This document shows positions 9,349 to 52,968 of a DNA stretch of 64,000 bases, in pieces (position 1 is the first letter of the stretch; each line of letters begins with the position of its first letter). The notes below the pieces were generated by a model. That model searched no databases and had not been told where the DNA came from. It saw only the letters and a list, made by a program, of their open reading frames with translations. Position numbers and translations under genes: made by a program. The stretch comes from Candidatus Omnitrophota bacterium (GTDB taxonomy: Bacteria > Omnitrophota > Gorgyraeia > Gygaellales > Profunditerraquicolaceae): assembly GCA_016782485.1 (NCBI GenBank), contig JADHYK010000001.1, forward strand, positions 30,081 through 94,080, read 5' to 3'.

Positions 9349-10674
9349 TCAGGCCTGTTTCTTTTTCTGATGAGAATCCCGCAGCTTCTGCATCCTCTCT
9401 TTAATCTTGGCCTCAAAGCCGATCTCCGTAGGCTCGTAATAACGTACCGCCTTCCCGGTGTATTTCTGTTTCACATAATGGCCCGGGTAATCATGGGCAT
9501 ATTTATACCCCTTGCCGTGGCCCAGCTCTTCTGCCCCTTGATAAGAAGCATCCTTAAGATGGTCCGGCACCTCCTGGACCTTTTTTTGCTCTACATCCTG
9601 ATAGGCCTTCTCAATTGCCAGGTAACTTGCGTTTGATTTGGGGGCGCAGGAAACATAAATTACCGCCTGGGCCAGAGGGATCCTTGCCTCCGGCATGCCC
9701 ACAAATTCGCAAATCTGCACCGCCGCATTTGCTAAGACCAGGGCAAGCGGATCGGCATTACCTACGTCCTCCGCGGCCAGAATACAAACCCGGCGGGCGA
9801 TAAAACGCGGGTCCTCTCCTGCATAAAGCATCTTGGCCATCCAGTATAAAGCGCTGTCCGGGTCAGAGCCGCGCATTGATTTTATAAAAGCCGAGGCAGT
9901 ATCATAGTGGCCGTCCTCATCCCGGTCATAAAGAACCGCCTTTTTTTGTATTGACTCCGCTGCAACCGCTAAATCAAAATTAATCACTCCTTCTGCGCCG
10001 GCAGGCGTGGTCAACACCCCTACCTCAAGGGCATTTAAAGCCCGGCGCGCATCGCCTTCGCAGGTCTTGGCCAGGTGTTCCAGCGCCTTTTTGTCAATTT
10101 TGACCCTGAAGTTTCCCAGCCCCCTGTTTTTGTCGGTGAGGGCGCTGTTTAGTATCTTTAAAATATCCGCCGTATCCAAAGTCTTTAATTCGCAGACCAG
10201 CGACCTCGATAAAAGCGGAGAGGCAATAGAAAAATAGGGGTTGTGGACGGTGGCGCCGATTAACACCGGGTTGCCCGCCTCCACATCAGGCAGGAGCACA
10301 TCCTGCTGGGCCTTGTTAAAACGGTGGATTTCGTCGATAAAGAGGATTGTTCTTTTATTATTGCTTGAGCTCTTCACTTTGGCAGTATTGATAATCCGCC
10401 TCAGCTCCTCTACATTCGAGGTAGTGGCATTTATCGGGACGTAATAAGCTTGGCTTACATTGGCAATACACCAGGCCAGGGAGGTCTTGCCTACTCCAGG
10501 CGGGCCGTATAATATCAGTGAACTTATCCGGTCGGCTTCGATGGCGCGACGCAGCAGTTTACCCGGGCCTAAAAGGTGCTTTTGTCCGGCAAATTCAGCC
10601 AGGGTTACCGGCCGCATACGCAAGGCAAGGGGAAGGTCTTTGGAGTCGGAGGGCTTTTCGTTAAATAAATCCAT
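9349..10674 (-). CDS. rarA: Replication-associated recombination protein A (MgsA/RarA AAA+ ATPase)
   Basis: [15 protein letters not shown] Walker [17 protein letters not shown] Walker B/sensor, C-terminal MgsA helical domain. Confidence 0.9.
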
Positions 10675-10680
10675 TGATAT

Positions 10681-10783
10681 GAGATCCTTCGTCCTTCGTT
10701 TCGCTCAGGACTCAGGATTATTTCGCACATTGACTTACGTCGTCCGCCAAAGTTCTGTGGCGGACTCCATAAGTCAAGTGCTC
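10681..10783. repeat. Degenerate, inverted and rearranged copy of the dual-hairpin intergenic repeat (see 16237..16318)
   Basis: Contains GATCCTTCGTCC, CTCAGGAT, TTCGCACATTGACTTAC and the hairpin GTCCGCCAAAGTTCTGTGGCGGAC, matching segments of the other copies. Confidence 0.5.
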
Positions 10784-11047
10784 AATAAAAAATCCCCGCA
10801 GAGTGCCGTCAGAGCGAAAATCTGAACCGATTTGGCTTCAAGTGGGGCCCTCTCCCGGACGCCGAAACGCCAGGGAATTGTGGGCTCCCTTATTATTGGT
10901 GTTGGTTCAATAATTATCGGGCTTCCAACGCGCACCGCAGGGATATCTAAAAGAACCGTAATTTTTGCTACATAAAAAGTATAGCACAGATTATCATTAA
11001 ATTCAATAGCTGCTAAAAACCTGCCTGTACGCGTATGCCCCTGCCCC

Positions 11048-13117
11048 TTAGCGCAACTTGGCGCTAAAAACTTCTTCCAGCAGCCTGCAGATCAGGCTAT
11101 GGACGGGGTTAACCTCTGCGTCGCTGAGTGTGCGTTCGCCGGAACGATAAAAACAGGAGATGGTCAGGCCGATATTGCCGGGAGGGATCTGGCTGCCCCG
11201 GTAATAATCCGCGACCTTCATACTGCAGAGAAGCGGCCGGCCTCTCTCCAGCGCCGCCTCCAACACCTTCTTTATCGGAACCTCCCTGCTCAATACCACG
11301 CTTATATCCCTGGTGATTCCCGGATATTTGGGGGGCGCGACAAAGGTCTTTGCCGGCCTGGCGTGGGCAAGGAGCCTGTCTAAATAAAGTTCGGCGGCAA
11401 CCACTTCTTTATTCTTGATATCCAACCTCTCTAAAAGCTCCTTGCGTAAAATAAAAATTTCGCCTGTTCTCTCCGTGCCGGCATAGATGCCGATCGAAGC
11501 AGCATTTTCTTTGGCATGAAAAGCGCAGCTACCCACTCCCAGCCTCTCGAATAATACCTCAACTATCCCTTTTAAATGCAGAAGCCCGAATCTTTCCTTA
11601 ACCAGGCCCTGGCCCAAAAGATGCGCCTTTGTCCCGCAGAGGGCTATGCCCAACATTAACTCTTCTTTTGGCCCGGAGGCGGAAGAAGAAAATACCTTTG
11701 CCAGCTCAAAAATATTCACGTACTCCTGCTGGTGATTAAGGTTATAGCCAATGCGCGCGGCAATACTCGGTACAAGATGCGGCCTCAAAACCTCCTGTTC
11801 CCTGCTAAGCGGATTCAAGATTCCGATCGGCTCAGGCTCATCCGGCAGCATAAAACCATTCAATAATTCCTTATCAACTAGTCCGTAGGTAATTGCCTCG
11901 CTCAATCCCAGTCCGGCAAGCATGTTCTTTAGCGCAGAGACCAGCTCCCTTTTTCCCGGGCGGAGTGAATGCGGCACTAAAAGCGGCAGGGTGGTAGGGA
12001 TTTTATCAAAGCCGTGTATCCGGGCTGTCTCCTCAACCAGATCTATCTGTGCCTTGATATCCTGCCTGTGCGAAGGAACTCCGGCTATAAAGCTATCCCT
12101 GCCAGTGGCTGCTACTTTAAACCCCAGGCCGATTAAAATCTTCTTTATCCTGGCGGGGGAGATCTTGGTTCCCAAAATCTTATTCGTATCCGCTACGCTC
12201 AGGCGGATGCTCTTTTGCTTCGCCCTGGCCTGGCCCGAACTCTTTGCCAAAATACATTCTCCCTGCGCCAAGGTGCGGATTAATTCTGCCGCGCAAGCGG
12301 AGGCAGGCCCAACCGCCCCCCAATCAATGCCTCGTTCAAACCTGTACGCCGAATCACTCTCTAGCTTTAGCTTTTGCCTTGCCTGACGCACGGTTATGGG
12401 ATTAAATACCGCTGCCTCTAAAAGGATGTTCCTTGTGCCGTCGGATACTTGCGTGTCGTTACCGCCCATGATGCCTGCGATTGCTACCGGCCCTCCTTTA
12501 TCTGCAATAACCAGGATGCCCTTATCCAGCAGCCGCTCCTCTCCGTCGATGGTAACGATCTTTTCCTGCTCTTTTGCCCGGCGTACATATATCTCTGCCG
12601 CCGCGTTTTGAGCTAATCTGTCTAAATCAAAGGCATGTAAAGGCTGGCCCCTCTCAAACAAAAGGTAATTAGTGATATCCACAACGTTGTTTATGCTGCG
12701 GCAACCGACGAGCTCCAGCCTTTCTTTAAGCCAGGCAGGCGAAGGCCCCACTTTTACATCTTTGATTATCTTTGCGGTGTATAAAGGACAGCCTTTTTTG
12801 TCCTCAATATTTATTTTTAATATGTTAGCGTTTAGCGGATAGCGTTTAGCGTATAGGCGACCTTTACTATGCGCTCTACGCTCTACGCTATACGCTCGAA
12901 TTTTCTTATTAGTAATTGCCGCCACTTCTCTTGCGATGCCGATAATGCTTAAACAATCCGGGCGGTTAGAGGTCACCTCTATCTCAAAGACAAAATCTCC
13001 TGCCTGCTTTTGGAGCGCAACCACCTCCAGCCCTGCCATGGTCAGCCTCTCAGCAAGCGCCTCTGCCGCCAGATCGATCCTTACAAACTCCTTCAACCAA
13101 TTATAGGTTACTTTCAT
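11048..13117 (-). CDS. pheT: Phenylalanine--tRNA ligase beta subunit (short form, 689 aa) carrying an in-frame repeat insertion
   Basis: tRNA-binding, B3/4, B5 and FDX-ACB domain patterns. Residues AYSVERRAHSKGRLYAKRYPLNA are encoded by the 70-bp repeat. Confidence 0.9.
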   Translation of the reverse strand: MKVTYNWLKEFVRIDLAAEALAERLTMAGLEVVALQKQAGDFVFEIEVTSNRPDCLSIIGIAREVAAITNKKIRAYSVERRAHSKGRLYAKRYPLNANILKINIEDKKGCPLYTAKIIKDVKVGPSPAWLKERLELVGCRSINNVVDITNYLLFERGQPLHAFDLDRLAQNAAAEIYVRRAKEQEKIVTIDGEERLLDKGILVIADKGGPVAIAGIMGGNDTQVSDGTRNILLEAAVFNPITVRQARQKLKLESDSAYRFERGIDWGAVGPASACAAELIRTLAQGECILAKSSGQARAKQKSIRLSVADTNKILGTKISPARIKKILIGLGFKVAATGRDSFIAGVPSHRQDIKAQIDLVEETARIHGFDKIPTTLPLLVPHSLRPGKRELVSALKNMLAGLGLSEAITYGLVDKELLNGFMLPDEPEPIGILNPLSREQEVLRPHLVPSIAARIGYNLNHQQEYVNIFELAKVFSSSASGPKEELMLGIALCGTKAHLLGQGLVKERFGLLHLKGIVEVLFERLGVGSCAFHAKENAASIGIYAGTERTGEIFILRKELLERLDIKNKEVVAAELYLDRLLAHARPAKTFVAPPKYPGITRDISVVLSREVPIKKVLEAALERGRPLLCSMKVADYYRGSQIPPGNIGLTISCFYRSGERTLSDAEVNPVHSLICRLLEEVFSAKLR
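12827..12896 (-). mobile_element. 70-bp imperfect-palindromic element inserted in frame in pheT. Identical (70/70) to the copy in pyrK
   Basis: On the coding strand AGCGTATAGCGTAGAGCGTAGAGCGCATAGTAAAGGTCGCCTATACGCTAAACGCTATCCGCTAAACGCT. The 5' 30 nt and 3' 30 nt are about 80% reverse-complementary around a TAAAGGTCGCC core. Confidence 0.8.
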
Positions 13118-13119
13118 GC

Positions 13120-14133
13120 TTAGAACTGCCTCAAAAATCTTAAATCATTCTCAAAAAATAATCTAATATCGTTAATGCCGTATTTGAGCATGGCGATTCT
13201 TTCAATCCCTAAGCCAAAGGCAAAACCCGTATATTTCTTGGGGTCGTAACCGACGTGCTTAAAGACGGCCGGATGTATCATGCCCGCGCCCAATATCTCC
13301 AGCCACCCCTTCCTGCCGCAGACAGAACAGCCTTTGCCGTTGCAGATAATGCAACGGATATCTACTTCTGCCGAGGGCTCGGTAAAAGGAAAGAAATGCG
13401 GCCGGAAACGCATTTTAATCTCCTGCCCAAAAACCGCTTTGGCAAGAATCTCTAAGGCCCCCTTCAAATCGGAAAATTTTATGCTCTTATCCACCATAAA
13501 ACCTTCAATCTGATGGAACATAAAGGAATGACTGGCATCCACGGCATCCGGACGGTATACGCGGCCGGGGACTACTATCGCCAGCGGAGGTTTATGCGCC
13601 TTCATCGCCCTTATCTGCACAGGCGAAGTATGGCTGCGTAGCAATAGCCGATTATTTAAATAAAAGGTATCAAAGGCGTCCCGCGAAGGATGCTCCAGGG
13701 GGATATTTAAAGCGGTAAAGTTGTTATATTCGCTTTCAATCTCCGGCCCTTCCACGACGGAAAAGCCGATCCTCATAAATATGGCGCAAATCTCATCGAT
13801 GACCCTGGTCAAAGGATGCAGATGGCCCAGCTCCTGCGTAATCCCCGGCAGGCCGATATCCGCTGGCCTTGAAACAGCGCCCTCGCCGTTCAAGGAATCG
13901 GCGAACGATTTCTCTTTTTCCTCGATCAGGGAAACTGCCCGCTTCTTTAAGGCGTTGACCGCCTGGCCGAAGGCAGCCCTTTCTTCTTTCTTTAGCCCGG
14001 GGATGGAACCGGTTAATTGCGCAATGATCCCTTTTCTCCCCAGGTATTTCAGCCTGAGCTCCTCCAGGGAAACGGCAGAACCGATATTCTGGAAATCGGA
14101 TTCTATTTGAATTTTAACTGCGCCAATATCCAT
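13120..14133 (-). CDS. pheS: Phenylalanine--tRNA ligase alpha subunit
   Basis: Class II aaRS motifs: FRPHFFPFTEPSAEVD, GAGMIHP, GFAFGLGIERIAM. Confidence 0.9.
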   Translation of the reverse strand: MDIGAVKIQIESDFQNIGSAVSLEELRLKYLGRKGIIAQLTGSIPGLKKEERAAFGQAVNALKKRAVSLIEEKEKSFADSLNGEGAVSRPADIGLPGITQELGHLHPLTRVIDEICAIFMRIGFSVVEGPEIESEYNNFTALNIPLEHPSRDAFDTFYLNNRLLLRSHTSPVQIRAMKAHKPPLAIVVPGRVYRPDAVDASHSFMFHQIEGFMVDKSIKFSDLKGALEILAKAVFGQEIKMRFRPHFFPFTEPSAEVDIRCIICNGKGCSVCGRKGWLEILGAGMIHPAVFKHVGYDPKKYTGFAFGLGIERIAMLKYGINDIRLFFENDLRFLRQF

Positions 14134-14612
14134 ATCAAACCTAGTGCCCCCAATAAAACAACTGCGGCGTTTCTCTTGCCTGTATTAAAACTGGATGCCT
14201 CGGGATTATGCCTGCCCGGGGCTATCTTCTCTATCTCGAAGGCATGTATATCAAGGTCACCGCCGTGTTCGGGGCAGGCACGGTGAAAAACTCCGATAAC
14301 CTCAATCAGATCGCCCGTTGAGCGATAACTGCCCGCCAGCAAATCTGCCTGTTTCAATAAATGCCCCTCCAGCCATACGCCGATTGCCTTTTCGCCGTCG
14401 GTTACATTTATCCAGGCAAAATTGCCGCGCCGCATTATATCACCGATAACTTCGCCGGCATAGGCGATTGTTTTACCGTCGTACGCCTGGGCATTCTCTA
14501 TTAATTCTCGGGCGCTGACCGGCTGGGCAAACGCTGTGTAATGTGTAAAGTGTAATGTGTAAAGCAAAATTACATTAAACATTACACATTTAACATTAAA
14601 CAGGTTTCTCAT
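14103..14612 (-). CDS. Hypothetical exported/membrane-anchored protein. Its signal-peptide-like N-terminus is encoded by a palindromic repeat
   Basis: Start taken as ATG 14612..14610, 1 nt after the trkH stop. The track ORF's extra 9 codons overlap trkH. N-terminus MRNLFNVKCVMFNVILLYTLHFTHYTAFA|QP has an AxA-like cleavage site. C-terminal hydrophobic helix. No recognisable family. Confidence 0.4.
   Translation of the reverse strand: MRNLFNVKCVMFNVILLYTLHFTHYTAFAQPVSARELIENAQAYDGKTIAYAGEVIGDIMRRGNFAWINVTDGEKAIGVWLEGHLLKQADLLAGSYRSTGDLIEVIGVFHRACPEHGGDLDIHAFEIEKIAPGRHNPEASSFNTGKRNAAVVLLGALGLIWILAQLKFK
14536..14601. repeat. Second heptamer-based palindromic element (GTGTAAT/GTGTAAA repeats opposing CATTACAC/CATTAAAC) lying inside a CDS
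   Basis: GTGTAATGTGTAAAGTGTAATGTGTAAAGCAAAATTACATTAAACATTACACATTTAACATTAAAC. Same architecture as the pheT/pyrK element with different sequence. Encodes residues 4-25 of the 14103..14612 product. Confidence 0.6.
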
Positions 14613-14613
14613 C

Positions 14614-16119
14614 TTACTTACCTTTGATGACCGCAACAAAGACCCCGATTAAAGTAAATATAGACATAAACTCAAGACGGCCCGCCCACATCTGAAAGAT
14701 GTAGATGTATTTAAGCGCAGCCGGCATAGCGGCGTTAGTAATCCCGCAGGATAATCCTACGTTGGCTGAGGCAGAGGTAGATTCGAATAAAGAATCTATA
14801 AAAGGATACCCGAAGCAGCTTCCGGCAACCGCGCCAAACCAATAAAGGGCAAAGTATGCCAGGGTGATTAAAAACGCCAGCCGCACCTGTTTATCCTCCA
14901 GAAATATCTCCTTGATATGGTGGTATTTCTGCACCACAATTGCTCTCTCCGGAAGGATAATGCGTTTTATGTCCTCTAACAGCGCCTTAAAAATTATCCC
15001 CAGGCGCAGCATCTTGATTGCGCCGGTGGTGGAACAGGCCGCACCTCCCAGGGACATGGCGCAAATTATGCCCACGCGGGCAAGGTGGTTCCATTCGTTA
15101 ACAAACTGGGCGGCGTAAATAGTCTGGTATCCGGTGCCGGTATGGGCGGAAATCAACTGGTAAAAACCTTTGCGGAATAACACTGCCAGCCCCGGATAGG
15201 TACCCAGCTGGGTTAACCCGAAGCCGGTAATAAAAAAGAGGACCATAATGGAGATAAAAAGCGTAACCATCTCTATATTCCTGACTATCTCTCTGCGGTT
15301 GCCCGTCCAGAGGTGGTAATGCAGTTTGAAGTTAAAGGCCCCCAGAATCATTATAATAATGGTGATTATTTCAAAGGGGAGGCTGTGGTAATAAAGTATA
15401 TTTTGTGACTGCGGGGCAAACCCCCCGGTATCAAAAGCGGCCATGAATATACAGACGCCGTGGAAAAAGGCGCTGGCGGGCCTTATCCCGTTGGCCATCC
15501 CCGCTATCGCCAGGGCAGAGGTCCCCAAAATCAGATAGACGATGCTGACAAACCAGATAAACCTGCTGGTATGTATGATATTAGGCAATATCCTTTCATC
15601 ACGGGCCTCGCCCACATACATTTTAAACGCGCCGGAAAAACCTTTAATAAAAAAGGAAAGCGCGACAATTACTATGCCCTGCCCTCCGATAAAAAGGATC
15701 AGGTGCCTCCAAAGGTTGTGTGTAAAAGAGAGGTGGTCAAGGTCCTGGACTAAAATCAGTCCGGTGGTGGCAAACCCCGACATTGAATCAAAGCAGGCAT
15801 CCAGGAATGACTTCCAGTGCCCGCTTAAATATAACGGGATCGCCCCCAATAACATGGCCACCAGCCATGATAAGGAGACTACCACCATCCCCTGCATCCA
15901 GTTTAATTCTTTTTCGGTAGAGCATGCCCTGGTCAGGAGCAGGCCGGCTATCAGGGCAATCTCTATGGCGATTAAAAAATCCAGGACGGGGCTTGCCTCT
16001 CGGAAGAATACCAGGCCGGCAAAGACGGGGACAAACATCGAAAGGGCAAGGCCGAGGATAATCTTGCCTAAATAATAACCGATCACTACAAAATCCTGCG
16101 GCCGGGGCTTTAATATCAT
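14614..16119 (-). CDS. trkH: Trk/Ktr-type K+ transporter membrane subunit
   Basis: TrkH/KtrB family, 501 aa. Repeated M-P-M segments with selectivity-filter-like GFATTG, GGQG and SANVGLS. Confidence 0.85.
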   Translation of the reverse strand: MILKPRPQDFVVIGYYLGKIILGLALSMFVPVFAGLVFFREASPVLDFLIAIEIALIAGLLLTRACSTEKELNWMQGMVVVSLSWLVAMLLGAIPLYLSGHWKSFLDACFDSMSGFATTGLILVQDLDHLSFTHNLWRHLILFIGGQGIVIVALSFFIKGFSGAFKMYVGEARDERILPNIIHTSRFIWFVSIVYLILGTSALAIAGMANGIRPASAFFHGVCIFMAAFDTGGFAPQSQNILYYHSLPFEIITIIIMILGAFNFKLHYHLWTGNRREIVRNIEMVTLFISIMVLFFITGFGLTQLGTYPGLAVLFRKGFYQLISAHTGTGYQTIYAAQFVNEWNHLARVGIICAMSLGGAACSTTGAIKMLRLGIIFKALLEDIKRIILPERAIVVQKYHHIKEIFLEDKQVRLAFLITLAYFALYWFGAVAGSCFGYPFIDSLFESTSASANVGLSCGITNAAMPAALKYIYIFQMWAGRLEFMSIFTLIGVFVAVIKGK

Positions 16120-16232
16120 ATCTTAAGGGTTAAGAGCAGGCAGATTAATAACGCCGCCAGTATAATACAGAGGCCGTATAATACCTCTGTGCCGATGCCG
16201 AAAACTATATTCAAGGGGATTTTAATTTTCAT
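16116..16232 (-). CDS. Unannotated 38-aa hydrophobic small ORF translationally coupled to trkH (ATGA overlap)
   Basis: MKIKIPLNIVFGIGTEVLYGLCIILAALLICLLLTLKI. Its TGA overlaps the trkH ATG. No strong SD. Below the track's 60-aa cutoff. Confidence 0.3.
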   Translation of the reverse strand: MKIKIPLNIVFGIGTEVLYGLCIILAALLICLLLTLKI

Positions 16233-16236
16233 AAAT

Positions 16237-16318
16237 GAGCGCTTAATTTACGCACACGATAGTGTGAGTAAGTTAATGCGCGAATTTATCCTGAGTCCGC
16301 TACAGGCGGACGAAGGAT
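16237..16318. repeat. Dual-hairpin intergenic repeat, copy 1 (about 85% identical to 18058..18141)
   Basis: GAGCGCTTAATTTACGCACACGATAGTGTGAGTAAGTTAATGCGCGAATTTATCCTGAGTCCGCTACAGGCGGACGAAGGATCT. Hairpin 1 is GCGCTTAATTTAC/GTAAGTTAATGCGC with a nested CACAC/GTGTG. Hairpin 2 is GTCCGC-TACAG-GCGGAC. Confidence 0.75.
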
Positions 16319-16981
16319 CTAGAGTTTTCCCGCCAGTATATTCAATAATTCCGGTTCATTCCCGATGACGGTGAGGGCGATAACATCGTCGCCGGGCCTT
16401 AAGACCGTATCGCCCCTGGGGACGATAACCTCCTCGCCTCTTACGATAGAAACCAGCACCGAGTCCGCAGGCAGGTGTATCTGTTTAATCTCTTTGTTGA
16501 TTACGGGTGAGTCCTCGGGCAGGTCCAGGCGCACAATCGCAAGCTTGCCGCGCTGAAAACTCATCAGGTTGACAAAATCTGCGAATGAAACCTCCCCTTC
16601 CACGATTTTGGCGATAATCGTAGTGGAGTTAATGGGCACATCCACCCCCAGCTCGGAAAATGTGTGCTCGTTATCCGGATTATTCACTCTGCCGACGGTA
16701 CGCTGCAGGTTAAATTTCTCTTTGGCCAGCTGGCAGATAATCAGGTTGTCTTCGTCGTCGCCGGTCACCGCAGCCAGAACGTCGGCGCGTTCGATACCGG
16801 CCTCCTCCAGGATGCGCGGCTCGCAGGCATCTCCGTTAATAACCAGTGCCTCCAGCTCCCTGGCCACCTCTTCACAAAGTGCTTTATCCTTGTCTACGAT
16901 GCAAACGGTATGCCCCACATGAGCAAGCCTTTTTGACAGAAAATAACCCACCTTTCCCGCGCCGATTATTATAATATACAT
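16319..16981 (-). CDS. trkA: K+ uptake regulatory subunit (RCK_N + RCK_C)
   Basis: IIGAGKVGYFLSKRL Rossmann motif. TrkA-N then TrkA-C. 220 aa. Confidence 0.85.
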   Translation of the reverse strand: MYIIIIGAGKVGYFLSKRLAHVGHTVCIVDKDKALCEEVARELEALVINGDACEPRILEEAGIERADVLAAVTGDDEDNLIICQLAKEKFNLQRTVGRVNNPDNEHTFSELGVDVPINSTTIIAKIVEGEVSFADFVNLMSFQRGKLAIVRLDLPEDSPVINKEIKQIHLPADSVLVSIVRGEEVIVPRGDTVLRPGDDVIALTVIGNEPELLNILAGKL

Positions 16982-16999
16982 CGCCCGCCCTCTCTTTTA

Positions 17000-17644
17000 T
17001 TATAAACGCAACTTTTCTTTTACCTTGGCTAAACTGGCCACCTTGAGCACCCCGATTAAAATATCTTTGGGCTTAAGCGTCAGGCCCGCCTCGGGGATTA
17101 TTATTTCGCCGGCCCGCCTTATCGCCACTGCCAGAAATTCCCCGGGAATGTTTATATCATGTACCGGCTTATTGACCATCTGTTCATTGGCGCTGATTTC
17201 GATAACGCTTAAGTCTTTATTTTCGATAAGGACGCTGGAAAAACGGCTTTCCACTATCTTATCCCTGAGCATCGAAGCAAAGAGCACCGTCCCGCTTATA
17301 ATATCCATCCCGAGGCTTGCGTAGATGTGCGCACGCAGCGGGTCATAGACCCGGGCAAGCACCTTGGGGACCTTAAATATCTTCTTAGCCACCTGCGAGG
17401 CGATTAAATTAGTATTGTCGCCGTTAGTGACCGCGCAAAAGGCATCCGCTTTTTCAATCCCGGCCTGTTTTAAAAGCTCCAGGTCAAATCCGTTGCCAAC
17501 CATGGTCAACCCGTTAAAAGTACTGCCCAGCCGTTCGAAAGAGGCGCAGTTCTTATCGATGACAACGACATTATAACCCTCTCCGGAAAGCAATTTGGCT
17601 AATTCAGAACCCACCCTGCCGCAACCTACTATTATGACATACAT
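17000..17644 (-). CDS. trkA: K+ uptake regulatory subunit, second paralog (RCK_N + RCK_C)
   Basis: IVGCGRVGSELAKLL Rossmann motif. 214 aa. Confidence 0.85.
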   Translation of the reverse strand: MYVIIVGCGRVGSELAKLLSGEGYNVVVIDKNCASFERLGSTFNGLTMVGNGFDLELLKQAGIEKADAFCAVTNGDNTNLIASQVAKKIFKVPKVLARVYDPLRAHIYASLGMDIISGTVLFASMLRDKIVESRFSSVLIENKDLSVIEISANEQMVNKPVHDINIPGEFLAVAIRRAGEIIIPEAGLTLKPKDILIGVLKVASLAKVKEKLRL

Positions 17645-17674
17645 ATTCCCTCGCTCCGTTGGGACCTGCTGTAT

Positions 17675-18040
17675 CTACCCCTTATTATTTTTTTGGCCCT
17701 TGCAGATCTCTACTAATTTTTTAAAAGCCTGGGCGTCTTGTGCTGCCAGGTCTGCCAGCATCTTGCGGTCCAAGCCTATTTTGGAATTTTTTAGCCCCTT
17801 AATAAATGCGCTGTAAGTAATGCCGAGGCTTCGACAGGCTGCATTTATGCGCGCAATCCAGAGCCGGCGGAACTCTCTCTTTCTCATCCGCCTGTCGCGG
17901 TAGGCGTAAACAAGTGCATGCATAACTGCACGGCGCGCCTGCCGGTATTGCTTGCTCCTGTCGCCCCAGAAGCCTTTCGCCCTCTTTAGCATCTTCTTTT
18001 TTCTTTTACGGGTAGCAACGCTGTGTTTGATTTTTGCCAT
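17675..18040 (-). CDS. rplT: 50S ribosomal protein L20
   Basis: MAKIKHSVATRKRKKKMLKRAKGFWG...VYAYRDRR. Confidence 0.95.
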   Translation of the reverse strand: MAKIKHSVATRKRKKKMLKRAKGFWGDRSKQYRQARRAVMHALVYAYRDRRMRKREFRRLWIARINAACRSLGITYSAFIKGLKNSKIGLDRKMLADLAAQDAQAFKKLVEICKGQKNNKG

Positions 18041-18057
18041 TTAGTTACTCCTTAAAT

Positions 18058-18141
18058 GAACGCTTGAGTTACGAACACGACAGTGTGAGTAACTCAATGC
18101 GTGAATTTATCCCGAGCCCGCCGCAGGCGGACGAGGGATCT
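18058..18141. repeat. Dual-hairpin intergenic repeat, copy 2 (between rpmI and rplT)
   Basis: GAACGCTTGAGTTACGAACACGACAGTGTGAGTAACTCAATGCGTGAATTTATCCCGAGCCCGCCGCAGGCGGACGAGGGATCT. Same orientation as copy 1. Confidence 0.75.
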
Positions 18142-18153
18142 TATCTTTTTGTC

Positions 18154-18354
18154 CTATCCATATGGTAGTACTCTCTTGATATATTTGACCTGGTTTGCCC
18201 CTGCCAAAAAACCGGGCCTTCTCATCCGGCGCAGCCTGGAGGATTTTTTATTGGACAACAAATGGCCCTTGCCGCAAGTAGGATGTTTTACCTTGCCTGT
18301 CTTGGTCAATTTAAACCTTTTCGCGACCCCCTTCTTTGTTTTTAATTTACCCAT
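18154..18354 (-). CDS. rpmI: 50S ribosomal protein L35
   Basis: MGKLKTKKGVAKRFKLTKTGKVK. Confidence 0.95.
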   Translation of the reverse strand: MGKLKTKKGVAKRFKLTKTGKVKHPTCGKGHLLSNKKSSRLRRMRRPGFLAGANQVKYIKRVLPYG

Positions 18355-18368
18355 CTTGCCCTCGCTGT

Positions 18369-18435
18369 AGATCCTTCGCCTGCCTTCGGCGAGCTCAGGA
18401 TAAGTTCGGTCATAAGTTTATGTTCGCTTCGCTCC
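18369..18435. repeat. Dual-hairpin intergenic repeat, copy 3 (inverted orientation, partly degenerate; between infC and rpmI)
   Basis: AGATCCTTCGCCTGCCTTCGGCGAGCTCAGGATAAGTTCGGTCATAAGTTTATGTTCGC aligns to the reverse complement of copy 1. Confidence 0.6.
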
Positions 18436-18452
18436 ATAAATTTAGACCCCAC

Positions 18453-18968
18453 TTATTTAGGCGCAACCACAAAGGACATAACCCTGCCCTCTAAACGGGG
18501 CTCCTTTTCTATCTGTCCGTCGTTTTGCGTATCGATAATGAATTTATCTAGAATCCTTTTCCCCAGGTCCAAATGCTCCATCTGCCTGCCGCGGAAAAAC
18601 AGGTTGACCTTGACCTTGTCTTTCTTTTTTAAGAAAGTAACCGCCTGCTTTACCTTGGTCTGGAAATCATGTTCGTCAATATTGGGCTTCAGGCGGATCT
18701 CTTTTAACTTGCCCTGCTTCTGGTGTTTCTTGGCTTCGCGCTCCTTTTTTTCCTGGTCATATTTAAATTTGCTGAAATCAATTATCCGGCAGACGGGCGG
18801 GCTGGCAGCGGAAGCCACCTCCACCAGGTCTAAATCATGCTGGCCTGCTAAACGCAGCGCCTCCGGCGTGGGCACAACCCCTAACTGGCCGCCATCCGGG
18901 CCGATCAGCCTTACCTGCGGGACGCGAATCCTTTCGTTAGTGCGGAATAACTTTTTTATAGCAACCAC
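18453..18968 (-). CDS. infC: Translation initiation factor IF-3 (non-ATG start)
   Basis: INERIRVPQVRLIGPDGGQLGV...DLVEV...PPVCRIIDF...LKEIRLKPNIDEHDF. The start codon at 18968..18966 is GTG. Confidence 0.9.
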   Translation of the reverse strand: MVAIKKLFRTNERIRVPQVRLIGPDGGQLGVVPTPEALRLAGQHDLDLVEVASAASPPVCRIIDFSKFKYDQEKKEREAKKHQKQGKLKEIRLKPNIDEHDFQTKVKQAVTFLKKKDKVKVNLFFRGRQMEHLDLGKRILDKFIIDTQNDGQIEKEPRLEGRVMSFVVAPK

Positions 18969-23854: not shown

Positions 23855-24711
23855 AGATTTTTCTCTCCTCTAATAATATGCATAATCCTATCCAGGTCTT
23901 CCTGCGAATAGAATTCGATTAATATGTGGCCGCGCTTTTTTCTCTTGCTGATGCGTACTTTGGTCGCTAACAGATGCTGCAACTGGTCTTCTAAAACCGC
24001 TACATACGGCTCTCTTTGCGACTGGCCGACCCTGCGCTTAGCCCCCCTTGGCCGGTGCATTTTAATTAAATTTTCCAGTTCGCTTACCGTCAGCCCTCTG
24101 GAGATAATCTCCTGCGCCAACCTCCTCTGCTGGTTCTCATCATCAAGTTCAAGCAGGGCCCTGCCGTGCGCAAAAGAAATTCTTCCTCTTTTTAGCTCCT
24201 GCTGCACCTCTTGCGGTAACTTCAATAACCGCAATATGTTAGTAATAGAAACCCTGGCTTTACCCAAGACCTGGCCAATTCTCTCCTGGGTCAGGTTGAA
24301 TTTTTCAATAAGATACTGGTAGGCGTGCGCCTCTTCAATGGGATTTAAATCCTGTCTCTGAATATTTTCAATCAGGGCCAGCTCCAGGGACTCGCGGTCC
24401 TCAACATCCTTTACCAAAATAGGAACCTCTTTCATATTTAATAAATTCGCGGCGCGCCACCGTCTTTCTCCGGCAATCAACTCATAGTCATCGCCCTTGC
24501 GCCTTACCAATAAGGGCTGGATTACGCCTTTTTCCTTTATAGACTGGGCCAGCTCTTCAAGGCCCTGGCTCTCAAAATCCTCCCGCGGCTGAAAAGGATT
24601 AGGCTTAATTCTTTCAGTTTGGACATTTATAATCTTTATTTCCTGGCCAGCCACTTGTGCCTTTTCAGGAATTAAAGCGCTTAAGCCCTTTCCTAAAGCT
24701 TTTCTTTCCAT
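23851..24711 (-). CDS. parB: Chromosome partitioning protein ParB/Spo0J
   Basis: ParB box QPLLVRR...YELIAGERRWRAA, HTH, C-terminal dimerisation region. Confidence 0.9.
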   Translation of the reverse strand: MERKALGKGLSALIPEKAQVAGQEIKIINVQTERIKPNPFQPREDFESQGLEELAQSIKEKGVIQPLLVRRKGDDYELIAGERRWRAANLLNMKEVPILVKDVEDRESLELALIENIQRQDLNPIEEAHAYQYLIEKFNLTQERIGQVLGKARVSITNILRLLKLPQEVQQELKRGRISFAHGRALLELDDENQQRRLAQEIISRGLTVSELENLIKMHRPRGAKRRVGQSQREPYVAVLEDQLQHLLATKVRISKRKKRGHILIEFYSQEDLDRIMHIIRGEKNL

Positions 24712-25505
24712 TCCGCCTCTCCTTCCAGTATAGAGCCTTGAGGTTCATAGGTCCCTAAAATCTCCCTGCTTAACTCTTCGTATTTTCTTGCTCCGATCGA
24801 ATCTTTATCATATAGTGATACCGGCTTACCAAAACTCGGCGCTTCAGTCAAACGAATACTTCTGGGTATTATGGTTTTAAAAACTTTTTCTTTAAAATAT
24901 TTTCTTACCTCCTGCACCACCTCTTTTGTGAGATTGGTACGAAAATCCGCCATAGTCATCAGCACGCCTTCAATGGTTAGGTCAGGATTGAGGTTTTCTT
25001 GCACAAGTCTAATGGTGCTAGTGAGTTGCGTCAATCCCTCTAAGGCATAATACTCGCATTGGACCGGGATAAGCACTGAATCTGCTACGCATAATGCATT
25101 GATTGTCAACAAGCCTAATGATGGCGGCGAATCAATAATAATATAATCAAAGTCCTCTTTTATGTTAGCAATAGCCCTCTTCAGTCTATACTCCCTGCCC
25201 AAAACGCTTACTAATTCCACCTCTGCGCCGGTAAGATCCAGGCTGGAGGGCGCCAACAATAAATTGCTGATGGCGGTGTTTTGAAAAATCTCGGCTATCT
25301 CCAACTCCTCCAAAAGCACATGATAAGTGCTTTGCTTAATATTATGCTTATTTACCCCTATACCGCTGGTGGCATTTGCCTGGGGGTCTAAATCTACTAA
25401 AAGAACCTTTGCCCCAGCTAAAGCCAGATAACTGGCTAAATTAATGGCAGAGGTTGTCTTGCCGGTTCCGCCCTTTTGATTACAAATGGTTATAATCTTA
25501 CCCAT
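24693..25505 (-). CDS. parA: Chromosome partitioning ATPase ParA/Soj
   Basis: Deviant Walker A NQKGGTGKTTSAINLA, VLLVDLDPQANAT. Confidence 0.9.
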   Translation of the reverse strand: MGKIITICNQKGGTGKTTSAINLASYLALAGAKVLLVDLDPQANATSGIGVNKHNIKQSTYHVLLEELEIAEIFQNTAISNLLLAPSSLDLTGAEVELVSVLGREYRLKRAIANIKEDFDYIIIDSPPSLGLLTINALCVADSVLIPVQCEYYALEGLTQLTSTIRLVQENLNPDLTIEGVLMTMADFRTNLTKEVVQEVRKYFKEKVFKTIIPRSIRLTEAPSFGKPVSLYDKDSIGARKYEELSREILGTYEPQGSILEGEAEWKEKL

Positions 25506-25540
25506 TGCCTAATACCATGTTCCTTATGGAACTCCTGCAA

Positions 25541-25747
25541 CTACCTACGCGAACCTCCTTTGTCTTCAATCACGCTTACCCTTACTTTCGCAGGCTTTGC
25601 ACCCTCCATCCCAAAAAGGCCCTTTTCCTCTTCAGAGAGTATCTCAATTTTGGCTTGATTGCGCGTCAGCCTTAATTCTCTAAGTGCTTTATTTATCGCC
25701 TCTTCAACGGTCTTGCCTTCAATTTCGATACTTTTTTTTGGGCTCAT
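25541..25747 (-). CDS. Stand-alone Jag/KhpB N-terminal-domain protein (no KH/R3H part)
   Basis: 68 aa. IEIEGKTVEEAINKALRELRLTRNQAKIEILSEE..GLFG resembles Jag_N. Sits in the canonical jag slot downstream of yidC. Confidence 0.45.
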   Translation of the reverse strand: MSPKKSIEIEGKTVEEAINKALRELRLTRNQAKIEILSEEEKGLFGMEGAKPAKVRVSVIEDKGGSRR

Positions 25748-27267
25748 TTTGAATGCCGGATACGAAACTGATACGCTGTCATCAACGTGCTATTGATTAA
25801 CCAATATAACACCAGGCCTGAAGGCATGTGATAAAAAATAAAACCGAACATAACCGGGAAGATGATCACCATCATCTTCTGTTGACCTGCCGTACTACTG
25901 CCTGCAGACACCATAGACATCTTCTGTTGAAAAAACATACCTATCGCCATAATAATAGGTAAGATATTGATTTCATTGCCCAGAATTGGCAAGGCATTTG
26001 GTAAGATAAATAAGCGATCAGGCTCTGATAAGTCCTTGATCCATAAAAAGTTAGCACCTTTCAGGGCAACCGAACGCATCAACGCTTGATAAAGGCCGAA
26101 AAAAATCGGCATCTGTAAGAGCAAGGGCAAACAGCCGCCAAAGGGATTTACTTTATGCTGTTTATATAATCCCATGATTTCTTTATTTAATTTTTGCGGA
26201 TTATCCTTGTAGGTTTTGCGTAATTCTTCAATGTGGGGTTGCAACGCCTGCATCTCTTTCATGGAGCGCATCTGTTTTAACGTGAGCGGGAACAATATAA
26301 GATAAACCGCAATGCTCAAGATAATAATCGCCCAGCCCCAATTATGCACTAAACCATAAAAGAGCCTCAACAACTGTAAAAGAATCTGCGAGATAAAATC
26401 AAAGAAGCCATAATTAATCACCGATGACCAGGCTGGATTAAGGCTGTTCATAATTCCTATGTCTTGTGGTCCCAAATAGATATGATATTTTTGCCCAAGC
26501 TGTTGCCCGGGGGCCAGCACCATTTTACCAACAGACAATACGATTTCGCTCTCCTTAGAATTTAATCTACGAATTAATACCGAACAATTTTTTGACTCCG
26601 GCTCAACTAGCAGGCAAAAGTACCTGTCGCGTAAAGCCACAAATTGGGCGTTCTCATAACCTACATCTTTGCGGCCGGTGCTATGCAGGCTTTTTTCTGT
26701 CGTTTTAATTGTTAAGCCGAGGTATCTGGTATTAAGGCTGTTGGTGGAAAAGTCTAAAACCCCCAGGATAATCGGAAGATCGACTGTGATGGTATCTGTA
26801 GAGGCATTCTGTACCTTCAATTCCATCCAAAAATCGTATTTTGAACCAGTTAAGCCAATAAAATCTTTTACAATCTTTTTATTATTGCCAGATTGGACAA
26901 ATCGAATCTCCCCAGCAGGGCTACTGGTTCTTTTAAATACCAGTGACGCATCATCAATTAACAATCCGGATTGTAACGGGAAGATATATTTTTGGTGGCC
27001 GTTAAAGCAGACTTCTTTGATCGCCCCTTTTTCTTCTATAAAAATTAACTCCTCTTGACCCCTGGTGTATTTAAATAACGACTGTTCAGCCGGAGCGGTT
27101 GTAGGTAAAGTCTGTGCAGGGGCATCCTTTGTCCCCGCTATAACCGGAGTGAATTGTCCCATTGTAACTACTTTGTTTACAACAGGATCTGGTTTTTGAA
27201 CCAATGCTGACCAGGCCAATAAAACCAATAACGATAAACTTAAGGCTAAAATAAATCGCTTACCCAT
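25744..27267 (-). CDS. yidC: Membrane protein insertase YidC
   Basis: N-terminal TM, large periplasmic domain, conserved C-terminal core GGCLPLLLQMPIFFGLYQAL. Confidence 0.9.
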   Translation of the reverse strand: MGKRFILALSLSLLVLLAWSALVQKPDPVVNKVVTMGQFTPVIAGTKDAPAQTLPTTAPAEQSLFKYTRGQEELIFIEEKGAIKEVCFNGHQKYIFPLQSGLLIDDASLVFKRTSSPAGEIRFVQSGNNKKIVKDFIGLTGSKYDFWMELKVQNASTDTITVDLPIILGVLDFSTNSLNTRYLGLTIKTTEKSLHSTGRKDVGYENAQFVALRDRYFCLLVEPESKNCSVLIRRLNSKESEIVLSVGKMVLAPGQQLGQKYHIYLGPQDIGIMNSLNPAWSSVINYGFFDFISQILLQLLRLFYGLVHNWGWAIIILSIAVYLILFPLTLKQMRSMKEMQALQPHIEELRKTYKDNPQKLNKEIMGLYKQHKVNPFGGCLPLLLQMPIFFGLYQALMRSVALKGANFLWIKDLSEPDRLFILPNALPILGNEINILPIIMAIGMFFQQKMSMVSAGSSTAGQQKMMVIIFPVMFGFIFYHMPSGLVLYWLINSTLMTAYQFRIRHSK

Positions 27268-27284
27268 TTATATTATAACCATTT

Positions 27285-27500
27285 CTATTCCAGCGGGTCA
27301 TAACCGCTTTTAGTTGAAAAGGGATGGCAGCGTAAAAGCCGTATCAGGGCCTTGCCGCCTCCTTTAAAAAAACCGTATCTTAAAACCGCTGCCTTTGCAT
27401 ACTCGGAGCAGCTGGGCGAAAAACGGCATGCCTGGGGCAATAATGCCCTGATATATCTTTGGTAAAAAGTAATAAAATAAAGCGCAACTCTCCCCGGCAT
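27285..27500 (-). CDS. yidD: Membrane protein insertion efficiency factor YidD
   Basis: CRFSPSCSEYA...HPFSTKSGYDP. 71 aa. Confidence 0.85.
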   Translation of the reverse strand: MPGRVALYFITFYQRYIRALLPQACRFSPSCSEYAKAAVLRYGFFKGGGKALIRLLRCHPFSTKSGYDPLE

Positions 27501-27637
27501 TAGCGGCTGATTCTTTTTCTTCCCTTTTTACGCCTGCGCGCCAATATTGCTTTACCGCAACGGCTCTGCATCCGGTTGCGGAAACCATGCCGTCTTTTGC
27601 CAACGATATTGGTAGGGGTCTTGAGGTTCTTTTTCAT
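27500..27637 (-). CDS. rpmH: 50S ribosomal protein L34 (below the 60-aa cutoff; its TAA shares one base with the yidD ATG)
   Basis: [52 protein letters not shown] 8 nt upstream. No rnpA between rpmH and yidD. Confidence 0.8.
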
Positions 27638-28049
27638 AAAAGATCTGCTCCTGCAAAGTGGTTAATCAACCCTGGATTAATGTTTAAAAATTGTAGCACA
27701 GAAAAATGCGGCGGTCAAGAAAACAAATGGGATAGGTAGTTGCAAAACCGGCCCGCGGTTTAAATCCCGGGTTTTTTCGACGACAACCGCATAGATCGGC
27801 CCCCCGGCATTGCTTAAATTTTTTTGCACAACCGCGCCCGGGATATCCCCAAGACCGCTTTTTCTGTTGACGCTTATGGAAATTGTTGTATAATAGCTGA
27901 CGCTTTCAAGGAGCCTTCATCAGGGCTTATCTTTTTTGCTTGCAACCTCTTTGGTCTCTGTTATAATTATCGTACGCAGCCTGCGGGTATACCATTGGGG
28001 TTTTCCACAGATTTATACAAGGTGTGAATAAACTGTTAATTCTTTAGAT
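27638..28049. promoter_or_regulatory. oriC: Origin-proximal rpmH-dnaA intergenic region: divergent promoters and DnaA boxes
   Basis: TTTTCCACA at 28001..28009 and TGTGAATAA at 28023..28031 (8/9 to TTATCCACA and its complement). TTGACG-16-TATAAT at about 27867..27894. Strand-bias switch at this point. Canonical rpmH|dnaA arrangement. Confidence 0.6.
27690..27718 (-). promoter_or_regulatory. Sigma70-like promoter for rpmH (TTGACC-17-TACAAT)
   Basis: Minus-strand sequence CTTGACCGCCGCATTTTTCTGTGCTACAATTTTT about 55 nt upstream of the rpmH ATG. Confidence 0.5.
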
Positions 28050-52145: not shown

Positions 52146-52968
52146 AGCAAAGCTGTTATATAATAAGAGAGAAAAGGGGAGTTTTTTTCGTCTGAAGATC
52201 CTTGCCCCGGCTATAGCCGCAAGTTGCCTGCCCGGGCAATTTGTCACCCTGAGATTAACCGACGGCTGCCAGCCGTTGTTAAGAAGGCCTTTTAGCATAC
52301 ACAGGATAAGCGGGTCCGGGGTTGAAATACTTTATGAGCTGGTCGGCCGGGGGACGCAAATCCTATCGCAGAAGAGGCCGGGGGAGTACCTGGATATAAT
52401 CGGGCCGCTGGGTAACGGCTTTAACTATCCGCTATCCGCTATCCGCTATCCGCTATCAATTTTGGTTGCCGGCGGAATGGGAGTCGCGCCGCTATTGTTT
52501 CTGGCAGAAAGGTTAGCGTATAGCGTAGAGCGTAGAGCGCATAGTAAAGGTCGCCTATACGCTAAACGCTATCCGCTAAACGCTTTTGTATTGATCGGCG
52601 CTAAGAATAAAAATCAAATCTTGTGCGAAAAGGAATTTAGAAAATTTGGTTGCACGGTAAAGATCGCCACCGATGACGGCTCTAAGGGCTATAAAGGCAA
52701 AGTCACGCAATTATTGCAGCACTTACTATCGACTATCGACCATCGACTATCGACCATCTACGGCTGCGGCCCGCGCCCTATGCTCAAAGAGATCAGCCGC
52801 ATCTGTCAAAGGCGTAATCTAGCGGCGCAACTTTCACTGGAAGAGCATATGGCCTGCGGCATCGGCGCCTGCCTGGGCTGCGCAGTAGATACAAAAGAGG
52901 GTTATAAGACGGTCTGTAAAGACGGGCCGGTATTTGATGCGGACCGGATAATCTGGGAGGCAGAATGA
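52117..52968 (+). CDS. pyrK: Dihydroorotate dehydrogenase (class 1B) electron-transfer subunit, carrying three in-frame repeat insertions
   Basis: FAD/NAD-binding (RPFSI, GPLGNGF, VAGGMGVAPL) and a C-terminal 2Fe-2S Cys cluster (CGIGACLGCAV). Inserted peptides: NYPLSAIRYPLS, AYSVERRAHSKGRLYAKRYPLNA, STIDHRLSTI. Confidence 0.85.
   Translation: MVSKKKLQFKAKLLYNKREKGSFFRLKILAPAIAASCLPGQFVTLRLTDGCQPLLRRPFSIHRISGSGVEILYELVGRGTQILSQKRPGEYLDIIGPLGNGFNYPLSAIRYPLSILVAGGMGVAPLLFLAERLAYSVERRAHSKGRLYAKRYPLNAFVLIGAKNKNQILCEKEFRKFGCTVKIATDDGSKGYKGKVTQLLQHLLSTIDHRLSTIYGCGPRPMLKEISRICQRRNLAAQLSLEEHMACGIGACLGCAVDTKEGYKTVCKDGPVFDADRIIWEAE
52425..52457 (+). repeat. Tandem heptamer array (CTATCCG x4.7) inside pyrK, in frame
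   Basis: CTATCCGCTATCCGCTATCCGCTATCCGCTATC. The motif also occurs at the 3' end of the 70-bp element (CGCTATCCGCT). Confidence 0.7.
52515..52584 (+). mobile_element. 70-bp imperfect-palindromic element inserted in frame in pyrK, identical to the pheT copy
   Basis: 70/70 nt identical to the reverse complement of 12827..12896. Both copies are in the same reading frame relative to the element and encode the same peptide. Confidence 0.8.
52725..52758 (+). repeat. Tandem 8/7-mer array (CTATCGAC/CATCGAC) inside pyrK, in frame
   Basis: ACTATCGACTATCGACCATCGACTATCGACCATC, encoding STIDHRLSTI. Confidence 0.6.

Follow-up and report, generated by a model that had tools for sequence, protein, structure and literature searches.

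The stretch of DNA analysed here, 64,000 nucleotides (nt) from a metagenome-assembled genome (MAG) of a Candidatus Omnitrophota bacterium and called the window throughout, carries four copies of a small two-hairpin repeat placed between the genes of housekeeping operons. The identical locus is present on public contigs of a 'Candidatus Omnitrophica' MAG, where Pfam annotation gives the gene order thrS-infC-rpmI-rplT-trkA-trkA-trkH-x-pheS-pheT-rarA, in agreement with the gene identities in the window. All four copies fall inside 8 kb, and all the genomes behind the results below are uncultivated. The copies were scored with a covariance model, R1, built from the four window copies and eight copies from other genomes and run over the window with filters off; sense and antisense refer to the GA strand, the strand whose hairpins show the GA/GA loops described below.

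16232..16320, plus strand: copy A, GA strand on the plus strand, antisense in a minus-strand operon, tandem-GA hairpins detected; R1 92.9 bits
16232-16288 and 16288-16318: hairpin 1 and hairpin 2 of copy A
18053..18141, plus strand: copy B, antisense in its operon, between rpmI and rplT; R1 91.5 bits
18369..18455, minus strand: copy C, sense in its operon, between infC and rpmI; R1 82.8 bits
10681..10788, minus strand: copy D, sense; R1 76.1 bits
10789..10946, minus strand: 6S RNA gene next to copy D, outside the repeat itself; Rfam RF00013 at 58.3 bits (gathering score 46.4)

Four copies in the operons around infC-rpmI-rplT and trkA-trkH

There are exactly four copies in the 64 kb, because the next best R1 match scores only 15.7 bits, and they are split evenly between the two strands. 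An earlier reading of this stretch from its letters alone (the sequence-only reading) had already placed repeats of both orientations at these four positions, about 85% identical between 16237 and 18058, with a nested CACAC/GTGTG stem, a GTCCGC-N5-GCGGAC hairpin and a GGATCT terminus. This description holds, and copies A and B share 85% identity over 89 nt. The two inverted copies, which it took to be partly degenerate, are full-length and can be aligned with A and B from end to end. It assigned the copy at 10681 to the pheT-rarA interval; this needs correcting, since that copy is not directly between the two genes but adjoins the 6S RNA gene. Two features go beyond that description: both hairpins contain a 2x2 tandem GA/GA loop, and the ends of the copies coincide with stop and start codons.

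A 39-nt core pattern shared by the copies has no match in 100 shuffled windows, and a generic scan for tandem-GA hairpins finds only the element copies in the window, against 0.3 hits expected. Folding of both strands relative to shuffled sequence gives z scores of -6.1 to -9.8 for three of the four copies; copy C shows no such marked difference (z -1.6).

The fit between copies and genes is close. Copy A lies between the stop of the second trkA (trkA2) and the start of a small open reading frame (ORF) upstream of trkH; the trkA2 stop TAG (16321-16319) overlaps its AGATCC, and the ATG of the small ORF adjoins its CTCATTT. This ORF, at about 16116-16229 on the minus strand, encodes a conserved hydrophobic peptide of about 37 residues (MKIKIPLNIVFGIGTEVLYG...), and the trkA stop and the start of this ORF overlap in relatives (TAATG or GTGA), whereas in the window copy A parts them. 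Copy B ends in CTCATTTA, adjoining the rplT Shine-Dalgarno (SD) sequence AGGAG, and in its hairpin 1 a G-C pair beside the GA loop has become A-U through changes on both sides. The first three bases of copy C, TAA (18455-18453), are the infC stop codon, and the copy belongs to a subfamily reading TAAGTG...CGAACTTA. Copy D begins directly after the 3' end of the 6S RNA and ends 10 nt before the rarA ATG; its outer stem is TTATT/AATAA in place of TAAAT/ATTTA, and its hairpin 1 has an extra apical GA-loop hairpin (10735-10772). The 6S RNA gene itself is preceded by a promoter-like site, TTGAAT-17-TATACT at 11006-10978 on the minus strand, which is sigma-70-like with an extended -10 TG, and four other Omnitrophota loci keep the gene at this place between pheT and rarA.

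Structure and covariation

On the GA strand the unit reads T|AAATGAG-hairpin 1-CGAAyTTA|TCCyGAG-hairpin 2-CGArGGATC|T. The element proper, AAATGAG...GGATC, is non-coding, measures about 85-100 bp and has a host T on each side. In each hairpin a 5-bp outer stem is joined through an invariant 2x2 GA/GA loop (UGAG...CGAA) to an inner stem of variable sequence, and hairpin 1 often includes an additional GA-rich loop or an extra apical hairpin. The bases TTA|TCC and GGATC|T flanking the stems are conserved, and the outer stem of hairpin 1, TAAAT/ATTTA, covaries to TAAGT/ACTTA, TTAAT/ATTAA, TCAAT/ATTGA and TTATT/AATAA.

In alignment A3, which was fitted to the R1 model, 96.3% of stem cells are paired, as against 25-46% when the partners are slid by one to three columns; both sides have changed in 24 of the 30 pairs, and none of 500 shuffles reaches the observed values. 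A MAFFT alignment of 12 sequences, made independently of the model, has compensatory changes in 18 of 30 pairs. Together with about 100 further copies in other contigs, found by the genome and metagenome scans described below, these changes bear out the suggestion of a structured or mobile family rather than a local duplication, since copies confined to this locus and stems free of compensatory changes are what a local duplication would have left, and the family is instead dispersed and its stems covary.

What kind of family is it? The sequence-only reading likened the repeats to repetitive extragenic palindromic (REP) sequences and bacterial interspersed mosaic elements (BIMEs), or to small MITEs (transposable elements of the miniature inverted-repeat type). 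As a description of behaviour this is apt, given the dispersal, the compensatory changes and the filled and empty sites; formal membership of either class fails. There are no terminal inverted repeats, so the element is not a strict MITE: its ends, TAAATGAG... and ...CGAAGGATCT, are not complementary to each other, and each pairs internally. Nor is it a classical REP or BIME, because it lacks a GTAG-type tetranucleotide (neither GTAG nor CTAC stands beside either hairpin) and a pairing of REP with inverted REP.

Several other candidates were considered and set aside. The UGAG...CGAA flanks resemble those of stem II of the hammerhead ribozyme, but the sequence, on reading, lacks the CUGA-N-GA core. 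A K-turn has a 3-nt bulge, whereas the internal loops here are symmetric (2x2) and have none. An intrinsic terminator would need a U tract, which is missing, and promoter signal does not rise above shuffled expectation. A mini-ORF, ATG-NNN-NNN-TAA after the stop codon, occurs in some subfamilies only, and the R''/R' boxes RYYYAAC...GTTRRRY of an attC site are absent from the consensus.

A related hairpin, (A)GAGATTGCTTCG..., lies in opposite orientation in the right flank of 17 of 98 elements (L022, L077, L083, L092 and L117 among the loci), often directly adjoining them. It is built on the same YGAG...CGAAR logic but has another outer stem (AUUGC/GCAAU), and so hints at a superfamily of GA-loop hairpins that extends beyond the element.

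Range of the family and its host operons

Scanning one genome per species with the pattern TTATCCYGAG-N15-CGARGGATCT yielded 41 loci, against about 4 estimated by chance. The full dual hairpin is found there in Omnitrophota and Planctomycetota MAGs, and hairpin 2 alone in Gammaproteobacteria, Acidobacteriota, the candidate phyla radiation (CPR), Verrucomicrobiota, Planctomycetota and other phyla. The inner stem reaches at least 4 bp in 19 of the 41 loci (5% expected), and a second GA/GA step, GGAGCG...CGCGAC, is present in another seven; a handful of the 41 resemble chance matches. A metagenome scan with the dual-hairpin pattern returned 109 stretches, in which R1 finds 95 copies.

Rfam has no match to the repeats at the gathering threshold over the whole window, or with E up to 10 over 10500-18600, and 18 other loci, searched at the gathering threshold, were likewise negative; nothing matching turned up in the plasmid and phage collections either. 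Among 2.9 million viral contigs the sole match is one hairpin-2 copy (L048, 4367-4401, minus strand; IMG/VR UViG_3300005532_000243), which occupies a 330-nt interval separating phage tail genes (DUF2460 and Gp84-like/BR0599). No description of the family emerged from literature searches, whose terms were sequence strings, words for repeats, hairpins and stop codons, and Omnitrophota. We are thus apparently dealing with a large, previously undescribed family of two-hairpin elements of about 90 bp.

The genes in the flanks belong to unrelated core operons, including rplJL-rpoBC, fusA, rpsF-ssb-rpsR-rplI, uppS-cdsA-dxr, ilvC and purA, and copies also immediately follow 6S RNA in Omnitrophota and 5S rRNA in a Doudnabacteria MAG, or occupy a 23S-5S spacer. 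In two MAGs of different phyla (Aminivibrio and Geobacteraceae), about 110 bases around a hairpin-2 motif are nearly identical (L028 2062-2170 and L033 4745-4854), which points to horizontal transfer or bin contamination.

Filled and empty sites in relatives

We compared the syntenic locus in seven other Omnitrophota, whose L20 proteins are 83-89% identical. Some of these lack the element at the junctions where the window has it. L159 and L160 have no R1 match in 20 kb, and both show remnant-like sequences after 6S RNA. The infC-rpmI site, the rpmI-rplT site or both are empty in L159, L160 and L162, with spacers of 14-16 nt (16 nt for infC-rpmI and 14 nt for rpmI-rplT in L159). The site of copy B is empty in L159 and in L162, the closest relative by L20 identity, where it reads GGATAAAAAGGAGTAAATAAATG, and the site of copy C is empty, as a 16-nt spacer, in L159 and L161. 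The sole copy of L161 is the one after 6S RNA, of the same TTATT/AATAA variant as copy D.

Three other relatives, L158, L163 and L164, are filled in differing ways. In L163 the infC stop carries a sense copy (CCT AAA TGA GG); in L164 a sense copy found at the rpmI stop is accompanied by the shared antisense end CTCATTTA|AGGAG. At the trkA2 stop an antisense copy is common to the window and L164, and L158 has there a sense copy followed by the relic AAGCGCTCATTTA. The copy-B subfamily recurs at a non-orthologous junction, pth-rpsF in L105, and nested copies are found in related Omnitrophota as well. Copies have therefore been gained, lost, replaced and inherited, which is the behaviour of mobile DNA and not of a fixed regulatory site.

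The sequence-only reading noted that infC-rpmI-rplT holds two of the copies and raised a link to L20 autoregulation; all four copies, moreover, lie within 8 kb. An autoregulatory structure of this operon, read by L20 or another ribosomal protein, or a local duplication confined to it, is nevertheless highly improbable: the same element stands in dozens of unrelated operons in several phyla, the junction spacers of relatives measure only 14-16 nt, and Rfam detects no L20 leader. We found no evidence for a role as L20 operator and reject it. It is possible, on the other hand, that the copies interfere with rpmI or rplT expression.

Other, unrelated repeat families also occupy intercistronic spacers in these relatives: GGGTTACGGTAACGAAGCCCGTATCGGTTAGG... 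occurs twice in L158 (7395-7531 and 8180-8286), an AT-rich palindromic insert lies at 10349-10759 of L161, and GACGAAAGAGACGAACAA is repeated in tandem in the rpmI-rplT spacer of L163.

Two insertions can be reconstructed from empty sites. At trkA2 the native TAATG overlap, of the form seen in L159, was divided TA|ATG, with a G of the element restoring TAG and the ATG kept; at rpmI-rplT the insert lies within the A-run of TAAAAAGGAG. Both sites are T|T on the GA strand and free of duplication, and the left-flank T is present in all copies. At infC the relatives are too diverged for exact boundaries to be reconstructed.

As to target-site duplications, none abuts the four window copies, and no short one of fixed length marks the family, most copies having none at all. 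Host duplications of 14-42 nt do directly flank 4-5 of 96 copies (26 nt in L124, 22 nt in L130, about 21 nt in L157, about 42 nt in L071 and 14 nt in L094), where about 0.2 per 96 would be expected by chance. They fix the ends of the element at AAATGAG...GGATC, and each covers the 3' end of a gene including its stop codon. L130 and L157, at the same gene end, may record one event, and L071 may be a tandem duplication of element plus spacer. Duplications of variable length are atypical of transposases, and those seen here, along with the lack of terminal inverted repeats and of any transposase nearby, could indicate that an RNA or single-stranded intermediate was pasted in at staggered breaks, by a retro-element-like or break-repair route. 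We think this improbable: the duplications are confined to so few copies, some of which may not be independent, the two reconstructed sites have none, and no reverse transcriptase was seen near any copy.

Stop codons, orientation and a possible RNA role

Where a long ORF enters the 5' end of the GA strand, its stop codon is the element's own TAA in 44 of 61 sense copies; 12 more stop four bases later, 11 of these at the TGA of AAATGA. In 56 of the 61, then, the stop codon is embedded in the stem of hairpin 1, and the element's TAA is base-paired with the TTA just before hairpin 2. A stop codon likewise forms the first three bases of a TTA|TCC-closed hairpin in CPR (L004, L023), Gammaproteobacteria (L010, L020) and Acidobacteriota (L030). 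On the downstream side, an SD sequence or start codon follows within a few bases. Antisense copies are equally flush with stop and start codons: the upstream stop overlaps their other end as TAG|ATCC, TGA|GATCC or TAA|GATCC, and the SD of the next gene adjoins CTCATTTA. CA, A or TA follows GGATCT in 93 of 98 copies, which yields a stop codon on the opposite strand. At 2323-2380 of L105, where an antisense copy lies at a junction without the usual stop codon, the ORF of pth (peptidyl-tRNA hydrolase) consequently gains a C-terminal extension of 17 codons into the element (...RSLVRQESRRTRDKFTH, then stop).

Such positions invite another explanation, namely that the element is a cis-acting RNA module selected in transcripts, with its spread as DNA secondary. 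It might act as a 3'-exonuclease barrier or RNase site that determines how stable the segments of an operon are. Or it might modulate termination and re-initiation, in which case hairpin 1 would bury the stop codon while an SD-like GAAGGA pairs with UCCUG in hairpin 2. Tandem GA/GA, which does not vary in this family, is a motif often met in RNA. The GA strand is the one transcribed more often, in a mild bias (52 sense and 33 antisense in the dual-hairpin set, p = 0.05; 18 and 5 by our own count among the cross-phylum matches); the stop codon is embedded in the stem, in distant phyla as well; the copies are hosted by highly expressed operons and by the regions just 3' of 6S and 5S RNA genes; and the copy after 6S RNA has been retained in two species. 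There is also a precedent, since REPs no more than 15 nt from a stop codon are reported to stall ribosomes and reduce expression (PMC12306157).

Other observations speak against the RNA module. About 39% of copies are antisense and would show UC/UC rather than GA/GA in mRNA, yet these are just as flush with stop and start codons; that both orientations are common speaks against an RNA function bound to a single strand. The same junctions lack the element in close relatives, and there is neither a terminator or promoter signal nor an Rfam family. In antisense copies, moreover, wobble pairs favour the GA strand, which is not the transcribed one there (17 G-U against 4 A-C), a pattern that fits constraint at the level of DNA. 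On balance we regard an RNA module as unlikely, although it is the chief competing explanation. An RNA role and mobility are compatible and not mutually exclusive.

Other features of the window

A perfect 70-nt inverted repeat of YAGCGTW heptamers has its arms 40 kb apart, at 12827-12896 (inside the pheT ORF) and 52515-52584, with CTATCCG repeated four times in tandem at 52425-52454, close to one arm; the YAGCGTW repeat may be an intragenic repeat element. At about 24000-28000 the GC skew changes sign, GC content falls to 43.5% and genes diverge on both sides; since the syntenic loci carry dnaA, yidC-jag and parAB, this is probably the replication origin region. In L160 a LAGLIDADG homing-endonuclease ORF (2098-2619) lies between jag and parB, where relatives have parA.

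Discussion

Our results describe a family of structured, stop-codon-associated repeats that come and go at the gene junctions of core operons. The interpretation we favour, and hold to be somewhat more probable than not, is a small non-coding, non-autonomous mobile element of REP or IS200/IS605 kind that operons tolerate. Under this interpretation the GA strand, folded as single-stranded DNA, would be read by a strand-specific enzyme, as are REPs by TnpA-REP or the ends of IS200/IS605, with the GA/GA mismatches and the flanking bases TTA|TCC and GGATC|T as recognition marks. TnpA-REP needs conserved stem mismatches and cleaves at C|T beside the REP hairpin (PMC8266576); the covarying stems with conserved mismatches, the fixed flanking bases, the C|T at the right boundary and the asymmetric ends are, by analogy, features of the sort that enzymes acting on single-stranded DNA read.

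New copies would be inserted where genes end, either within the stop codon or next to it, at a T|T of the GA strand and in either orientation. Why would such operons tolerate them? Spacers in these genomes are often shorter than 25 nt, so only a few bases at the stop codon are permissible. An insert there may be harmless because in two of three frames a stop codon is recreated by its 5' AA or AAATGA, while its other end supplies TAG, TGA or TAA on the opposite strand, and because the two hairpins would fold up the roughly 90-nt insert and so keep the stop codon near the next SD or start codon.

A number of observations weigh against this interpretation. No recurrent protein family accompanies the copies, the 2682 clustered flanking ORFs comprising housekeeping families only. 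A low-sensitivity phmmer search of 4949 ORFs with an IS200 TnpA query found no IS200-like TnpA, and among the same ORFs, which come from fetched loci that are genome fragments, no RAYT/TnpA-REP gene flanked by REPs was seen. Transposition of the IS200/IS605 type is duplication-free and leaves unexplained the long duplications, differing in length, that flank a few copies, every one of them antisense. The two-and-two orientation in the window is unlike a strict lagging-strand rule, and the wobble test is weak in sense copies (13 G-U against 10 A-C). The share of in-frame TAA stops, 44 of 61, seems to exceed what a T|T target plus purifying selection obviously predicts, and an RNA function, too, would be consistent with the way copies cluster in strongly expressed operons and behind stable RNA genes.

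How does the element compare with known systems? It has much in common with REP, BIME and REPIN sequences and their RAYT transposases: both are imperfect palindromes, short and extragenic, that occur within operons at the ends of genes, in many copies and in either orientation. The element's hairpin-2 sequence is conserved across phyla, whereas REP families are, to our knowledge, species-specific. The likeness extends to conserved stem mismatches, conserved bases and C|T beside the hairpin, and putative recognition features on one strand (PMC8266576), and to nearness to stop codons, for which translational effects of REPs are known (PMC12306157). A REP, however, is defined as an imperfect palindrome of 20-50 nt after a conserved tetranucleotide, usually GTAG (PMC8266576); our element has no such tetranucleotide, sets two different hairpins in direct order rather than REP and inverted REP, and differs further in its tandem GA/GA loops, its stop codon in the stem and the absence of a RAYT gene from the fetched loci.

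With IS200/IS605 ends and their PATE-like miniatures the element shares asymmetric left and right subterminal hairpins, the lack of terminal inverted repeats, irregular stem bases, a fixed left-flank base and duplication-free insertion at the two reconstructable sites. There may even be a guide-like pairing of the element's TAA with the TTA just 5' of hairpin 2, but this complementary 'guide' lies 3' of hairpin 1, not 5'. Also unlike IS200/IS605, no TnpA or TnpB was found, orientation is not one-stranded and some copies have long duplications; no full-length TnpA-encoding IS matches the element ends, either among the ORFs of the loci or in the plasmid and phage collections.

MITEs, like the element, are small, non-coding and multi-copy and leave filled and empty sites. 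Mycobacterial interspersed repetitive units (MIRUs) and the Geobacter MITE Chunjie likewise lie between operon genes without breaking the operon, with filled and empty sites known (PMC3184786), and MIRU ends overlap neighbouring stop and start codons (PMC3184786). But MIRUs contain small ORFs as well as short direct repeats, the terminal inverted repeats of Chunjie measure 21 bp and its duplications 9 bp, and neither has dual GA-loop hairpins or any sequence similarity to the element. The attC site of integrons is a folded single-strand site that immediately follows, and often overlaps, the upstream ORF's stop codon; it is made up of a paired outer box, an unpaired central spacer, an inner box and a tip that varies. 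Our element resembles it in that position and folding and differs in lacking the RYYYAAC/GTTRRRY boxes, in standing in core housekeeping operons in both orientations and in forming no cassette arrays. Its distinctive traits are the dual GA-loop hairpins, a stem that incorporates the stop codon and a hairpin-2 sequence that different phyla have in common.

A bolder view, which we put forward as speculative and rather unlikely, is that the family is a previously unrecognised mobile or regulatory module tied to stop codons, whose cross-phylum hairpin 2 (UUAUCCYGAG...CGARGGAUCU) is the handle for a widespread partner, be it an enzyme that acts on single-stranded DNA at T|T or a factor in termination and re-initiation. 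The hairpin-2 signature could be used to seek the responsible enzyme or RNA-binding partner, and the set of filled and empty sites is useful for studying how operons tolerate insertions and how translational coupling works across a 90-nt spacer. For annotation, the elements create spurious small ORFs and C-terminal extensions, such as that of pth in L105, and they probably also break metagenome assemblies. If our interpretation is right, small-genome and mostly uncultivated bacteria, among them Omnitrophota, Planctomycetota and CPR, would share structured elements that settle between a stop codon and the next ribosome-binding site and occupy even operons for ribosomal proteins, RNA polymerase and tRNA synthetases.
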